DNA from: a virus
Taxonomy: Duplodnaviria; Caudoviricetes
IMG/VR virus record: IMGVR_UViG_3300049182_000044
Span: 96,001-160,000 of that record
Reading direction: 5' to 3' (one strand)
Length of the DNA: 64,000 nucleotides
Positions 58,880 through 62,430 of the stretch are shown here, one piece after another. The stretch's first letter is position 1. Each line of letters starts with the position of its first letter. The notes under the pieces are model-generated. The model made no database searches and was not told the origin of the DNA. It saw only the letters and a list, made by a program, of their open reading frames with translations. The translations under genes were made by a program, and so were the position numbers.

Positions 58880-59245
58880 TTACTGAATAGTCTGCGCTGG
58901 AATCAGATTGAGTTCCGCAAGAATCGACTTCACGCGTTCCTTGAATACTTCATCCGGATTGGGTGAAACTTTCGGAACATGGGTAGCGGTTCCAGTCATC
59001 GCGGTGAGCTCTTCGGGAACGTACTGATTAACGATGTCAACCAGTGGTACATCGACTACCTCAAGCTTGGTCCACTCACGAACTGGTGCGGCGTTTTCGA
59101 TGGTGGATTGCAGTTGGGCGGGATCAGCCGGAAGCAGCATGTTCAGGCTAATAGGATCTTTCCCTTCGCAGGTGTATTGAACCACGAAGGACTTCTGGCG
59201 TAGGTTAACGCTTTCAATTTTCCAGCTATATGTGATAGAAGACAT
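58880..59245 (-). CDS. small tail-fibre-associated (assembly/chaperone-like) protein
   Basis: ATG 59245, 1 nt after the panD-like stop; ITYSWKI...IENAAP..W. Confidence 0.65.
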   Translation of the reverse strand: MSSITYSWKIESVNLRQKSFVVQYTCEGKDPISLNMLLPADPAQLQSTIENAAPVREWTKLEVVDVPLVDIVNQYVPEELTAMTGTATHVPKVSPNPDEVFKERVKSILAELNLIPAQTIQ

Positions 59246-59246
59246 T

Positions 59247-59624
59247 TTAGTTTCCTTCAATTACGTGATGCGTTTCAGTTTTCAGCACGTTGTTTGATTC
59301 ATCAACGTACACCACAGTGTGAGTCAGTCCAGCAATTTCATCCGGCGTCACATGCTCAAGTCGATTGATGACCACTTTGTCACCGGCACAGAACAAACGA
59401 GCAGGAGGCCCGTTCAATGTAACCGCACCAGGAGCTCCTGGGATAATGTAGGTCTCCCAATGATTACCGTTCGCCAAGTTGTTCACATGAACAAACTCAT
59501 AAGGCAGAAGTCCCGCAGCTTTGATAAGCTCGGGACAGAGACTGATCGAACCCTTGTAGTTCAAGTTCGCATCAGTCACTGTTGCCCTATGAATCTTCGC
59601 TGTAATGAAGATTCGTTGCTTCAT
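59247..59624 (-). CDS. panD: PanD-like pyruvoyl-dependent decarboxylase proenzyme
   Basis: AKIHRATVTDANLNYKG|S cleavage site, AAGLLPYE.V, NG..WETY, LNG..AR and GDKV. Confidence 0.88.
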   Translation of the reverse strand: MKQRIFITAKIHRATVTDANLNYKGSISLCPELIKAAGLLPYEFVHVNNLANGNHWETYIIPGAPGAVTLNGPPARLFCAGDKVVINRLEHVTPDEIAGLTHTVVYVDESNNVLKTETHHVIEGN

Positions 59625-61264
59625 TTAATTGCCTTCACAATCTCTGGGCGTACTGCATCCCAGTCCAAGGTGGTATAGTCAAAGCCGTACTGGTTCACAC
59701 CCGCACCGACAACGTAACCGTTGACGATGATTGGGCTACCCGAAGTAAGTGGCAGGTAGAGCTGCGTGTCTTGCGCTGCACTGACTTGAACGATCTCTTG
59801 CGAAGTCCACCCGATGAGGTTCGCCCACTTGGTGTTTTCAACCCCACTACGAATCGAGTCATTGTCGAACAGACCGCCGATGACACCTTCTTCTGCTTCT
59901 GCTTTCCATTTCTCAGGATTAGCAGACCACCACCATTGAGTATCGTCGCGCTTCGTCCACATGGCGTGTTCTTCTGACCAGAACATGTCTGTGCCTACGA
60001 AGTTCAACATGCGACGGCCACCCAAGATAGGCATGTGATAGTCAACCACAGGTGTCGGCCCATTGACGCCCATTACCATATCGCCGACCTTAATGGTTTC
60101 AATGTTACTCCACGTGCCATCACCCATGAGTACCTGAGAGCCTGCTGGGAAGCAAGTGTTATCGGGCGGGTAGTATTGTGCAGGAATTTCTGTGCGAACG
60201 ATGTACGGAGGTTTCGGAGAAGCCGTAGCATTTGAAAGTGCGGGACCATCTGTTCCGAGTAACGTAGTCGACAGCAAAAGCACCCGTGCATAACCATCGG
60301 CACCTTTAGAACCCGCAGAGCCCCAAGCAGATTCAGAATCACCTTCCCATCTTGCGAACGTCCACCAAATTTGCGGATAGTTGTAGCGAGTTGCCAGAGA
60401 AGTCCAAGTAGGATCAGCCCAATAGCCACCGCTGCCGCCTGCGCCACCGAAACCATCACTCGCGCCACCTGCACCCGGTGCGATATTCTCACCAGTGTAG
60501 TACTGATTTGTAGCGAGGTCATACATTCCATACTGGCTAATCAGATACGGAGCTGTTTCAACCTTACCCAGTAGGTAAGCGCCACCTGTGTAGGACTCCC
60601 ACATATGCGCCCACTTTCCAGATTCGCCAGCAGGATAACCAGCACCACCTAAACCACCCGGAGATTCTGCCGCTTTTTTATCCTGTTCACCACCTGTACC
60701 ACCTGCGCCACCGCGACCACCATCTGCAGATGCGATGCCAACGATTGAAGTTGCACCACCATCAGCACCGGGATTTCCGTTACTGCCATGACGACCAGTA
60801 CCATCACCGCTAGGAACTTCATACCAGCTAACAGAAGCACCACCTGCGCCACCTGCACCAACAATAATTGTTAAAGTTGATCCCGGTGTTACATCAATCA
60901 CGCGATAAATAGTTTGACCTTTACCGCCTGCGCCACCGCCGCCGCCTGCAGTGCCGTTTGTCCAATCGTATTCACCGGCGCCGCCACCTGAACCGCCACC
61001 GCCCGAGCCACCGCGCAACGCGATTGCAGCTTTAGTTATGCCCGCAGGAATTGGAAGTGAATATGTACCGGGAACCGTGTACTCGAAATCGAGAGCCGGA
61101 TTGCCGTCAGCTGGCTTGCCGTAGAAGTCTGACAACAGCACAGTACCGCTCGGCTTCTGACACAGCGCGCGAGCGTCAGTGTCATTAAATGTTAAGGGGC
61201 CACCGCGTCCCAGCTGATCCAAGATCATCTGAAACGTCAGCGCCCCGCTTGTTGGGAGCGCCAT
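59621..61264 (-). CDS. glycine-rich tail adhesin-like protein with a C-terminal Hint domain
   Basis: MALPTSG...LSDFYGK start; GGGGAGG motifs; CFPAGSQVLMGDG...IKVGD.V...SEEH...IVNGYVV. Confidence 0.8.
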   Translation of the reverse strand: MALPTSGALTFQMILDQLGRGGPLTFNDTDARALCQKPSGTVLLSDFYGKPADGNPALDFEYTVPGTYSLPIPAGITKAAIALRGGSGGGGSGGGAGEYDWTNGTAGGGGGAGGKGQTIYRVIDVTPGSTLTIIVGAGGAGGASVSWYEVPSGDGTGRHGSNGNPGADGGATSIVGIASADGGRGGAGGTGGEQDKKAAESPGGLGGAGYPAGESGKWAHMWESYTGGAYLLGKVETAPYLISQYGMYDLATNQYYTGENIAPGAGGASDGFGGAGGSGGYWADPTWTSLATRYNYPQIWWTFARWEGDSESAWGSAGSKGADGYARVLLLSTTLLGTDGPALSNATASPKPPYIVRTEIPAQYYPPDNTCFPAGSQVLMGDGTWSNIETIKVGDMVMGVNGPTPVVDYHMPILGGRRMLNFVGTDMFWSEEHAMWTKRDDTQWWWSANPEKWKAEAEEGVIGGLFDNDSIRSGVENTKWANLIGWTSQEIVQVSAAQDTQLYLPLTSGSPIIVNGYVVGAGVNQYGFDYTTLDWDAVRPEIVKAIK

Positions 61265-61266
61265 TC

Positions 61267-61953
61267 TTACTCTCCTTTCAGTGTAGCAACTTCTTTGCGA
61301 AGGATATGGATTTCCTCGTGCAGTTCTTTGAAGGCCTCAACAAACAGGCCTGCAAGGTTGCCGTAGGCAAGGCTCAGCTTGCCATCTGCATCTTCCGACA
61401 CAGCTTCCGGCAACACCTTCTGAACGTGCTGCGCGATCAAGCCTGTCTGACGCAAGCCTTCAACGTCGGTACGATCATAGGTGCAGCCGAGCAATTCAGT
61501 AATGCGCGCCATAGCATTGTCGATGCGAACGATGTTGGTCTTAACGCGCTCGTCCGACAAGCCGGAGATGTTGCCATTGACGGTCATACCGTTGGTCGGT
61601 TGTCCGAAAGTGATCTGACGCTGGCCGCCAATCGACACGCCGATAACACCGTCTGCCACCCAGTGGAAGCCCGTGTCTTTGACCAGGTCTTCGTCGAACG
61701 TGATGCCAGGTTGAGCTGCAGTTCCAGATGCAACCAGCAAGCGACCCGTCATCGTGTCACCAGCCTTGTTCACCGGAACATATCCGAGAGCGTCAGTGAT
61801 CATGTCAGCCGTAATGCTGGTAATGCCATCTGTTCCAACTTGAACGCTCTTTGTCGAGCCGTCACTTAGAGTGAACGTCGCGGTCGATCCGGAGACGGTA
61901 ACATCTTTGATGACCGGCGTCGCCAGCATACGTAAGTCAAGTTTCGTAGTCAT
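61267..61953 (-). CDS. short fibre protein with a peptidase S74 intramolecular chaperone
   Basis: LSDERVKTNI, TGLIAQHVQKVLPEAV, LAYGNLAGLFVEAFKEL and a terminal coiled coil. Confidence 0.85.
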   Translation of the reverse strand: MTTKLDLRMLATPVIKDVTVSGSTATFTLSDGSTKSVQVGTDGITSITADMITDALGYVPVNKAGDTMTGRLLVASGTAAQPGITFDEDLVKDTGFHWVADGVIGVSIGGQRQITFGQPTNGMTVNGNISGLSDERVKTNIVRIDNAMARITELLGCTYDRTDVEGLRQTGLIAQHVQKVLPEAVSEDADGKLSLAYGNLAGLFVEAFKELHEEIHILRKEVATLKGE

Positions 61954-61968
61954 TTCTTAGTTCTCCAA

Positions 61969-62430
61969 TTAGCTTGGGTTGAATTCGTCTCGGAACGCAT
62001 GAGCTACGTATGCGGGACCGTCTTGAGTGTTGTTCGGTACGAAGACCATTTCTTTCGGATAGGTTTTCTTCACAGCTGCGATTTGTTCAGCCATAGCTAG
62101 AGCTTCTGACGTAAGGAGCTCCGGCTTAGCAGTCAAAAGCTTCCACAAAACATCCAGCTGATCGCCGATGCTTGGGTATTCAGGCTTTCGAGCTACTGTA
62201 TGCGTAACCACAACTTCATCAGTCGTTTCGCTTACAGGAGCCTCACCTAGATGAACGCTCTCGCCCATGTTGATTACCTGTGCGTCAACCATTTCAGGGT
62301 TGCAGCGTCCTGCACGGATGACATTGCCGTTCTCGCCTGTCACGTAGTACGCTACTGAACGATCACTAGCTGCACCTTGATTTTCTTCAGAAGGCCCTTT
62401 CGGGCCCCCTACGTTTGCTGTCGTAGACAT
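61969..62430 (-). CDS. tail-fibre-associated protein
   Basis: EYPSIGDQLD...IAAVKKTYPK motif; ATG 62430 after TAGGAG. Confidence 0.7.
   Translation of the reverse strand: MSTTANVGGPKGPSEENQGAASDRSVAYYVTGENGNVIRAGRCNPEMVDAQVINMGESVHLGEAPVSETTDEVVVTHTVARKPEYPSIGDQLDVLWKLLTAKPELLTSEALAMAEQIAAVKKTYPKEMVFVPNNTQDGPAYVAHAFRDEFNPS

Follow-up and report, generated by a model that had tools for sequence, protein, structure and literature searches.

Why should a bacteriophage carry a gene for a PanD-like enzyme within its tail-fibre genes, overlapping the gene of a fibre protein that ends in a Hint domain? The window, i.e. the whole stretch of 64,000 nucleotides that was analysed, contains the distal part of the late tail-fibre operon of a 281-kb phage, with all fibre operon genes on the minus strand (Table 1). 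An earlier note on this DNA had described three consecutive self-cleaving proteins here, S74, Hint and PanD-like, and had proposed that they form a cassette. Its gene order, its gaps of 15, 2, -4 and 1 nt and its terminator were all recovered when the sequence was re-read, as were the self-processing signatures: Ser133/Lys138 (S74), Cys371/His433 (Hint) and Gly25-Ser26 (PanD). The gaps represent, respectively, the p153-S74, S74-Hint, Hint-PanD and PanD-p121 junctions, and a further 14 nt separate the central fibre gene from p153. At the Hint-PanD junction the PanD start overlaps the Hint stop in an ATGA. The central fibre gene (stop at 62445) extends past the window and encodes 1452 aa in the full genome. 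The terminator hairpin comes from sequence reading and fold energy; a simple terminator scan missed it.

Table 1. Features at the distal end of the fibre operon, in window positions.
Feature	Position	Strand	Basis or remark
Central tail fibre gene, 3' part	62445..63998	(-)	PHROG tail-fibre families, E ~1e-24
p153, small accessory protein	61969..62430	(-)	PHROG families without assigned function, residues 80-132
S74 short fibre protein, 228 aa	61267..61953	(-)	PF13884
Gly-rich/Hint protein, 547 aa	59621-61264	(-)	Passenger and C-terminal Hint cap
Passenger, residues 1-370 of the 547-aa protein	60155..61264	(-)	N-terminal fibre peptide and Gly region
Hint cap, residues 371-547 of the 547-aa protein	59624..60154	(-)	Cys371, His433
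PanD-like proenzyme, 125 aa	59247..59624	(-)	PF02261
p121, small protein	58880..59245	(-)	Homologue in L008
Intrinsic terminator hairpin and U-run, operon end	58836..58873 (about)	(-)	Fold -22.4 kcal/mol

Does the S74 protein belong with the two genes that follow it? It is a short fibre of the usual kind, equipped with a chaperone of its own, and looks like an independent neighbour of the Hint gene. The Peptidase_S74 match (PF13884, 51.2 bits against a cut-off of 22) covers residues 133-185 of 228, at the C-terminal end, and PHROG fibre families are matched with E-values down to 8e-39. The catalytic pair, Ser133 and, five residues on, Lys138, lies within SDERVK. Cleavage is predicted before Ser133 (codon 61555-61557), which leaves a passenger of 132 aa, in keeping with the figure of about 130 aa given earlier; a T4 gp10-like branching domain was not found in these 132 residues. 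The domain is the only S74 domain in the whole phage genome, and the protein is a regular member of the intramolecular chaperone group of K1F gp17 and T5 pb1. It would trimerise with its chaperone and then cut the chaperone off.

The proposal that S74, Hint and PanD are one three-part tip-maturation cassette, with staged self-cleavages that time the assembly of the tip, is very improbable. The order S74, Hint, PanD does recur at locus L124, with a radical-SAM (rSAM) gene inserted, and an S74 gene lies upstream of the Hint-cap gene in about 11 loci. But S74 is missing from 19 of 29 Hint-cap records and from loci L116 and L008. An S74 domain works in cis, on the passenger to which it is attached, as is established for endosialidase-type chaperones, and the self-processing of PanD does no more than make the cofactor of PanD. 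No link in timing connects the three cleavage events. What survives of the cassette is the adjacency of Hint and PanD, which recurs; the trio itself is not fixed, as most Hint-cap phages are without PanD and the S74 protein looks like an independent neighbouring fibre.

What kind of protein carries the Hint domain? The N-terminal 50-75 aa of the 547-aa protein match fibre proteins of Ralstonia phage RPSC1, Vibrio phage nt-1 and PSTNGR1, and represent a peptide common to secondary fibre proteins. The central region is 22% Gly, with a sub-threshold Gly_rich_2 match, and the passenger ends in YYPPDNT, before the Hint Cys. In the gp37/gp38 pair of Klebsiella podophage KP32, an example of branched receptor-binding proteins, the first fibre has a C-terminal self-cleaving chaperone and the second docks by a short conserved N-terminal peptide (PMC13352976). 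The gene arrangement in the window is alike, whereas docking here is inferred only from the gene order and the common N-terminal motif. Where an S74 gene precedes a Hint-capped gene, the two are probably a primary/secondary fibre pair: in the window the S74 protein is the probable primary fibre, and the 547-aa protein would dock onto it by the conserved peptide and act as a secondary receptor-binding protein.

The Hint assignment is based on a sub-threshold Pfam match together with conservation across a family. Hom_end_hint gives 31.5 bits for the domain alone and 29.2 for the whole protein, below the gathering cut-off of 32.1, and only block A aligns with the Pfam Hint models (Hom_end_hint, Hint, Vint, Hint_2). 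The homologue P0006, itself above the Pfam cut-off, is matched by BLASTP over blocks A and B (E 1e-10). The nucleophile Cys371 is encoded at 60152-60154, and the block B residue His433 lies in SEEH. Both in the window and in the family consensus, the Hint core ends (...IIVNGYVVGAG... in the window) and a tail of about 30-35 aa leads to the stop codon; the tail is conserved as GAGxNExxFDYxxxDWD in the family alignment.

Hint caps constitute a large and apparently undescribed family, strictly C-terminal on fibre or adhesin passengers, with the domain end within 25 aa of the protein C-terminus in 103 of 121 members. The family has 647 cluster representatives, and its passengers are fibre/adhesin proteins with Collagen, Collar, GP38, Phage_Tail_Tip, Shufflon_N and Gly_rich_2 domains. 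A Hom_end_hint match at E<1e-3 is present in 64 of 91 members (best 5.8e-12). The Hint Cys is invariant (113/113) and is preceded by Thr, Ser or Cys in 101 of the 113; in alignment A5 the residues C1, F2, H63 and W66 are invariant, His433 being the invariant His. The family consensus has no terminal Asn.

What could such a domain do? An intein or a type-A bacterial intein-like domain was considered and rejected, as a terminal His-Asn and a downstream extein Cys/Ser/Thr are both absent. Other non-intein Hint domains, BIL and pretoxin-HINT, occur in hypervariable surface or secreted proteins of bacteria, polymorphic toxins among them, where their presumed role is to cut or rearrange the adjoining sequence. 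They lie inside their proteins, with a further domain behind, and in many a C-terminal Asn is kept, whereas the phage caps are terminal and phage-borne. Another relative is the Hog/Hint domain of Hedgehog, where a small-molecule nucleophile, recruited by an adduct-recognition region, resolves the thioester and the N-terminal part is the functional product. Because it has no terminal Asn, a Hedgehog-type Hint can only form the thioester, to be resolved by an external nucleophile. The cap has in common with it the C-terminal position, the N-terminal Cys, the block B His and the lack of a terminal Asn. It differs in that only block A matches Pfam and in that a conserved tail takes the place of a sterol-recognition region; its passengers are phage fibres and adhesins, its partners are PanD or radical-SAM enzymes, and its adduct is putative.

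By this comparison, the cap would be limited to the first Hint step, in which Cys371 attacks the Thr370 carbonyl to form a thioester at the predicted cleavage site. Splicing is not an option, for the domain lacks both a terminal Asn and a downstream partner; resolution of the thioester must come from an outside nucleophile, and this would release the cap in Hedgehog fashion. By analogy with the S74 chaperone, the cap may likewise be a C-terminal module that is shed after assembly, although its fold is another one and its chemistry is that of a Cys thioester and not of a Ser/Lys dyad.

The commonest partner of Hint caps is a gene for a radical-SAM/SPASM maturase, found downstream of most Hint-cap genes. 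It co-occurs with (Asn-Cys)n repeats right before the Hint Cys, and the rSAM subfamily is defined here by these repeats directly before the Cys plus an rSAM/SPASM gene within about 2.5 kb downstream. The enzymes, all of which score far below the equivalog cut-offs, are of the same type as the maturases PapB, QhpD and CcpM; those act on a leader peptide, whereas the putative substrate here is a whole Hint-capped fibre protein. The window's protein has no (Asn-Cys)n before the Hint Cys, and there are no PF04055 matches in the entire 281-kb genome. This branch is not applicable to the window's phage.

The gene that follows the Hint cap encodes a recognizable proenzyme of the PanD family of pyruvoyl decarboxylases. 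The Asp_decarbox match (PF02261) is 116.6 bits against a cut-off of 25, the Gly25|Ser26 processing site is present and, in alignments to solved PanDs, the equivalents of Lys9, His11, Tyr22, Thr57, Tyr58 and Asn72 are kept. The family profile, the Gly|Ser site and the catalytic residues are thus common to it and to the PanDs of E. coli and M. tuberculosis (PDB 1aw8, 2c45). Differences from the classical enzyme are His55 in place of Arg54, NGPPA in place of NGAAA, a score of 100.3 bits on the NCBIfam equivalog TIGR00223 (cut-off 106), a genome in which a whole-genome search found neither panB nor panC, and a location in a late fibre operon, overlapping a Hint-cap gene.

Does this variant make beta-alanine? 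Arg54 of PanD binds the side-chain carboxylate of the substrate. With its altered pocket (His55, NGPPA) the enzyme could decarboxylate another amino acid, or one attached by its side chain, for a use unrelated to fibres such as modification of the cell surface or of nucleic acids. This is quite unlikely. It is favoured by the replacement of Arg54 across a large clade (His in 93 of the 120 nearest homologues; otherwise Leu, Ser or Phe), by the score below the panD equivalog cut-off, and by the proximity of some phage copies to QueC or PP-loop genes. Armatimonadota, Alicyclobacillus and Sulfobacillus have the variant as an ordinary gene on the chromosome, and in the first two it is a second paralogue beside canonical PanD. 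Sulfobacillus, however, has the variant alone, with no canonical copy, and for this reason the variant may be a normal PanD. Processing and catalytic residues are all kept except Arg54, and at L124 a canonical PanD is present in the same kind of cluster.

Is the PanD gene a partner of the Hint cap or a stray? The preferred reading, held at a probability of about one half, is that the two are a functional pair in fibre maturation. A pair is defined here as a C-terminal Hint cap with a PanD-family gene on the same strand, either directly downstream or beyond a single intervening gene. The earlier note had named a lack of synteny in other genomes as the outcome that would speak against its proposal; Hint followed by PanD was found in L187/188, L192-194, L116 and L124, so this check does not refute the proposal. 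The direct ATGA overlap is present in three diverged elements (the window, L187/188 and L192-194), and one gene intervenes in L116 and L124. The nearest relatives of the window's PanD, P0013 (68% identity) and P0028, each have a Hint-capped fibre gene upstream with the same 4-nt overlap. Compared with the window's cap, theirs show 49% and 44% identity; their passengers are unrelated and the downstream gene is different. It is because the pair stayed together while both flanks were exchanged that PanD is read as a partner and not as a stray gene. The three direct-overlap loci may nevertheless descend from one ancestral junction, kept by tight linkage alone. In L116 a 283-aa gene stands between the Hint cap and PanD (62% identity, with Phe at the catalytic Tyr58 position), and rSAM comes next. 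L124 has S74 fibre, Hint cap, rSAM/SPASM, PanD and B12-rSAM; its PanD is canonical (Arg54, 41% identity, above the TIGR00223 cut-off) and was therefore acquired separately.

The main rival to the functional pair, credible if somewhat doubtful, is that PanD is metabolic cargo, a hitch-hiker that raises the supply of beta-alanine and coenzyme A during infection, and that the Hint cap is simply a module for folding or cleavage that removes itself, with water resolving the thioester. PanD would have landed at the fibre-gene end and moved with the Hint-cap segment. The ends of fibre genes are a known hot spot for cargo genes, and PanD could travel with the Hint segment because fibre C-terminal modules swap together with adjoining downstream DNA. 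In phages PanD is mostly found among replication, nucleotide and accessory genes (L001, beside DNA polymerase; L006, L007, L012, L100, L101, L189, L190 and L191), and no Hint cap is near it in L100, L101, L190 or L191. Nor was a cap found within 4-6 kb at 92 other PanD loci, cellular or viral. In four records (G010, G020/phage 2-1 and G032/G033) a distance of 6-25 kb separates PanD from the Hint gene, and PanD sits among genes of nucleotide metabolism or replication. Cellular PanD homologues stand alone; the chromosomal variant genes named above also count against a fibre partnership. Most Hint-cap records (23/30) are without PanD; one of these is JWF, closely related to Achromobacter phage 2-1, which does have the gene. 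No PanD follows the Hint gene in L009 and L008, which have the closest full-length Hint homologues, that of L009 being the closest. In L008 the p121 homologue comes directly after the Hint-cap gene, so that the window's PanD looks inserted, and the GC content of the PanD gene is 0.47 against 0.51 for the window.

Against hitch-hiking, the phage lacks panB and panC, the genes that would let it use beta-alanine for itself. PanD is also very rare in phages (any match in 15 of 50,697 phage records), yet five distinct loci have it next to a Hint cap or one gene away, and in one of them it is the separately derived canonical form. Virus records with Hint caps contain PanD in 7 of 30 cases with the window counted (6 of the 29 others), control virus records in 0 of 34 (Fisher p = 0.003). 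In the PanD tree, seven of the eight copies from Hint-cap phages fall in one 22-row clade (support 99/98); the Hint-cap label can be mapped with 4 changes, whereas shuffled labels needed 7.6 on average and not one of 500 shuffles got down to 4.

If Hint cap and PanD are a functional pair, how might they work together? Most likely PanD, translationally coupled to the Hint gene, would provide beta-alanine or a related amine locally, for use at or just after resolution of the thioester, and the putative product would be a fibre with an amide-capped C-terminus. An amine could plausibly become attached by way of the Hint thioester. A fuller scheme is a Hedgehog-like finishing of fibres, where the PanD-made amine (beta-alanine or a relative) attacks the cap thioester and leaves a covalently modified C-terminus, and where, in the rSAM/SPASM branch, (Asn-Cys)n is cross-linked first and the cap serves as a self-removing recognition handle. 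This scheme is speculative and unlikely. Structure models of these proteins were of too low a quality for use.

Receptor-binding fibres decide which bacteria a phage infects, and self-removing C-terminal modules are central to fibre folding. To our knowledge, the well-described fibre modules are only the S74 chaperone type and separate chaperones, and we know of no described precedent in viruses for post-translational fibre finishing of the Hedgehog kind. The terminal Hint cap points to a second widespread self-processing fibre module, with dedicated enzymes, PanD in some phages and radical-SAM/SPASM in many; the Hint-PanD pairing, which recurs in unrelated phage DNA, is suggestive of a route, so far undescribed, by which phages finish their receptor-binding fibres. 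Should the cap attach a small molecule or guide cross-linking of the fibre end, viruses would have their first case of Hedgehog-like protein-adduct chemistry, and phages a new class of modified adhesins, of use in engineering stable or self-labelling fibres. Were PanD only hitch-hiking, the Hint-cap family with its link to radical-SAM enzymes would still be an undescribed feature of phage fibres.

Two small proteins flank the three genes. A Pfam search with p153 gave no matches, and there is a weak XkdW-like lead (Atlas score 0.87 only). Searches of Pfam and PHROG with p121 found no family match, and structural comparison gave only a weak tail-assembly-chaperone lead (Atlas, TM 0.44); p121 is 38% identical to L008:3513-3896 (E 1e-13).

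The window (bases 96001-160000 of a virus record of 281,566 bp) carries, behind the 1452-aa central fibre gene, five tightly spaced minus-strand genes separated, in order, by 15, 2, -4 (ATGA) and 1 nt; a strong hairpin and U-run after p121 end the operon. Gene order, gaps and terminator, as described in an earlier note, are confirmed from the sequence, and so are the self-processing signatures from which that note derived a single tip-maturation cassette of S74, Hint and PanD. The S74 protein matches PF13884 at 51.2 bits, with Ser133/Lys138 within SDERVK after a passenger of 132 aa (about 130 had been claimed). 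The PanD-like protein, of the aspartate 1-decarboxylase family, matches PF02261 at 116.6 bits and has the Gly25|Ser26 site; residues corresponding to Lys9, His11, Tyr22, Thr57, Tyr58 and Asn72 of E. coli PanD are also in place. In the 547-aa protein, Pfam models match block A only of the Hint domain, at a score just under the gathering cut-off; the protein has both Cys371 and His433 (SEEH). At its end the domain reads IIVNGYVVGAG, with a short tail and no His-Asn. This rules out splicing and would leave it only the formation and loss of a thioester at its N-terminus. The AlphaFold2 model of this protein (mean pLDDT 41) and a model of p126 (pLDDT 58.6) were too poor for a fold search. The p121 and p153 proteins and the small genes after Hint caps gave no Pfam match, even at lax thresholds, and Atlas leads for p121 and p153 were weak only. 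The collagen-repeat fibre gene nearby probably begins at the ATG at 58763, since the listed TTG start overlaps the terminator upstream of it; the first 130 aa of its product match two further genes of the same phage (genome 115533-119390).

Genes of the operon and a neighbouring fibre gene, in window positions
Feature	Position	Strand
p153	61969-62430	-
S74 protein, 228 aa	61267-61953	-
547-aa Gly-rich protein with C-terminal Hint domain	59621-61264	-
PanD-family protein, 125 aa	59247-59624	-
p121	58880-59245	-
Collagen-repeat fibre gene (listed TTG start)	57807-58838	-

What kind of unit is the Hint domain? A HMMER scan of 1.84 billion representatives returned a family of 647 proteins at E<=1e-3, 79 of them at E<=1e-30. 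Among the 121 members with the whole domain, it ends no more than 25 residues from the protein C-terminus in 103; Cys1 is invariant (113/113), the residue before it is Thr, Ser or Cys in 101/113, and C1, F2, H63 and W66 are invariant across a 59-row alignment. Passengers range from 100 to >2000 aa; the domains recognised in some of them are Collagen, phage tail Collar, GP38 adhesin, Phage_Tail_Tip, GpJ FNIII, CBM, PA14, Gly_rich_2 and Shufflon_N of pili. Fibres and adhesins thus carry the Hint domain as a modular 'Hint cap'. No description of the family was found in the literature on Hint domains in tail fibres, on phage-tail domains resembling inteins, on SPASM enzymes linked to tail fibres or on the JWF phages. 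Three capped proteins (alignment A4) have a Shufflon_N N-terminus, as in PilV-type pilus adhesins, and the cap therefore serves bacterial pilus adhesins as well as phage fibres. Four proteins of 1285-4119 aa (P0149, P0162, P0192, P0266) show 5-7 partial matches each to the first half of the cap, and may be giant surface proteins with Hint-like repeats in tandem.

Does the PanD-like gene belong with the cap? In public phage and IMG/VR records, the phage PanDs nearest to it are surrounded by replication or accessory genes, for example in Achromobacter phage 2-1 (next to DNA polymerase), in Jace and at loci L006 and L007. The nearest full-length Hint homologue (locus L009, 44% identity) follows an S74 C-terminus and has no PanD, a p121 homologue (38% identity) comes directly after the Hint gene in locus L008, and phage JWF has the Hint protein and no PanD. 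A plain insertion of PanD with no link to Hint, suggested by the synteny of L008 and L009 and by the replication-module contexts, was revised after wider locus tests. PanD is present in 6 of 29 IMG/VR records encoding a full-length cap, whereas 34 control virus records taken from that scan have none, or, with the window counted, in 7/30 vs 0/34 (Fisher p = 0.003); any PanD match occurs in only 15 of 50,697 deposited phage records. The earlier note proposed to look for S74-Hint-PanD synteny, whose absence elsewhere would count against its model; the Hint-PanD link at the core of that model passes this test. The two nearest relatives of the window's PanD, P0013 (68% identity) and P0028, both come directly after a gene for a Hint-capped fibre, and stop and start overlap there by ATGA as they do in the window. 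The caps at these loci share 49% and 44% identity with that of the window, the passengers are unrelated to its Gly-rich one, and the small gene downstream differs; the pair was therefore kept while both flanks changed. The PanD tree places 7 of the 8 copies that come from phages with a Hint cap in one well-supported clade, and the Hint-cap label is far more clustered than under shuffling. In locus L187, genes for F-type ATP synthase beta and epsilon (210-1610 and 23-166) lie on the opposite strand, 75 nt upstream of a Hint-cap/PanD element, where in L188 the fibre reading frame extends further upstream; either the element occurs in two contexts or one assembly is chimeric.

At other Hint-cap loci PanD lies further from the cap. 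It is one gene away in L116 (tail-tip protein, Hint cap, 283-aa gene, PanD, radical SAM) and in L124 (S74 fibre, Hint cap, radical SAM/SPASM, PanD, B12-radical SAM, glycosyltransferases). It lies 6 kb from the Hint gene within a nucleotide-metabolism block in record G010, 14.6 kb away in G032/G033, and 25 kb away, beside DNA polymerase, in G020/phage 2-1. The L124 PanD is of the canonical type, with Arg54, a score above the TIGR00223 cut-off and 41% identity, and is therefore a separate acquisition. For 92 other PanD loci the cap HMM gave no match in the surrounding 4-6 kb, and it gave none near L100, L101, L190 and L191; a Hint-cap search of the incomplete PanD-bearing records G035/G036 (L006, L007) was likewise negative. 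The three direct-overlap loci may descend from one ancestral junction. The window's PanD-like protein has His55 for Arg54 and NGPPA for NGAAA, and scores 100.3, just under the cut-off of 106, in the NCBI panD equivalog (TIGR00223). Phages are not alone in having this variant, which also occurs in Armatimonadota (62-66% identical), Alicyclobacillus, Sulfobacillus and Patescibacteria, often as a second paralogue beside canonical PanD. No pan operon was found around the cellular variants, and panB and panC are absent from the phage genome. We give a probability of about 0.5 to joint action of Hint cap and PanD in fibre maturation, although the specific thioester-aminolysis mechanism is unlikely. 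PanD as a hitch-hiking metabolic gene is the main rival, less probable than joint action, and what is left of the odds goes to other readings.

Among the cellular genomes G001-G005 (loci L097-L099, L021, L036), those of Armatimonadota and Alicyclobacillus have two PanDs, a canonical Arg54 form and an NGPPARLF variant without Arg54; Sulfobacillus has the variant only. Tyr58 is the proton donor in E. coli PanD. The L116 copy (6359-6739) has Phe at this position and no Tyr22 equivalent (LRSRGS), and may be catalytically altered. Phage variants also adjoin QueC or PP-loop ATPase and SNF2/PD-(D/E)XK replication genes (L007:663-6533, L006:4228-6363), which hints at a second role for the clade, independent of fibres. 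PanD as the missing 7-deazaguanine decarboxylase DpdL was rejected, DpdL being QueD-like (bioRxiv 10.1101/2023.04.13.536721).

In 8 of 29 Hint-cap records the gene immediately before the cap gene encodes an S74 domain, as it does in the window, in L009 and in Providencia phage PSTNGR1; the Hint-cap proteins of S74-preceded loci have an N-terminal peptide in common. These pairs resemble the primary and secondary fibres of Klebsiella podophages, the secondary one docking via a conserved N-terminal peptide (PMC13352976). Our reading of S74 is that of a neighbour with an independent chemistry of its own. With that, and with no PanD in 23 of the 30 records that have a Hint cap, a strict cassette of three genes is not supported. 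Four jumbo-phage loci (L122, L128, L129, L130; records G025, G031-G033) have a conserved 173-aa protein after the S74, Hint-cap pair, related neither to p121 nor to the 146-aa protein of L187.

A stronger partner of the Hint cap than PanD is radical SAM. In 18/29 records the cap is followed at 0.2-2.5 kb by a same-strand radical-SAM gene; the encoded enzymes have a SPASM domain, and their closest resemblance is to QhpD, PapB and CcpM, which are protein/peptide maturases. They tend to occur where (Asn-Cys)n repeats immediately precede the Hint Cys, e.g. NCNCDCNCS|C (16/20 with repeats vs 1/14, p = 6e-5; exceptions are mostly counting or contig-end effects). This shows that Hint caps usually come with enzymes acting on the C-terminal end of the passenger. 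The window's cap junction is YYPPDNT|C and its phage genome has no radical-SAM gene; the radical-SAM branch is therefore not applicable to it. Repeats followed by a radical-SAM/SPASM gene occur in L113-L127 (L116 and L124 among them), L005 (Achromobacter JWF-like phages), L106/L108 and L110-L112, and the combination looks like an undescribed fibre cross-linking system. In the JWF-like phages, a conserved 240-aa protein is encoded between the Hint-cap fibre gene and the radical-SAM/SPASM gene.
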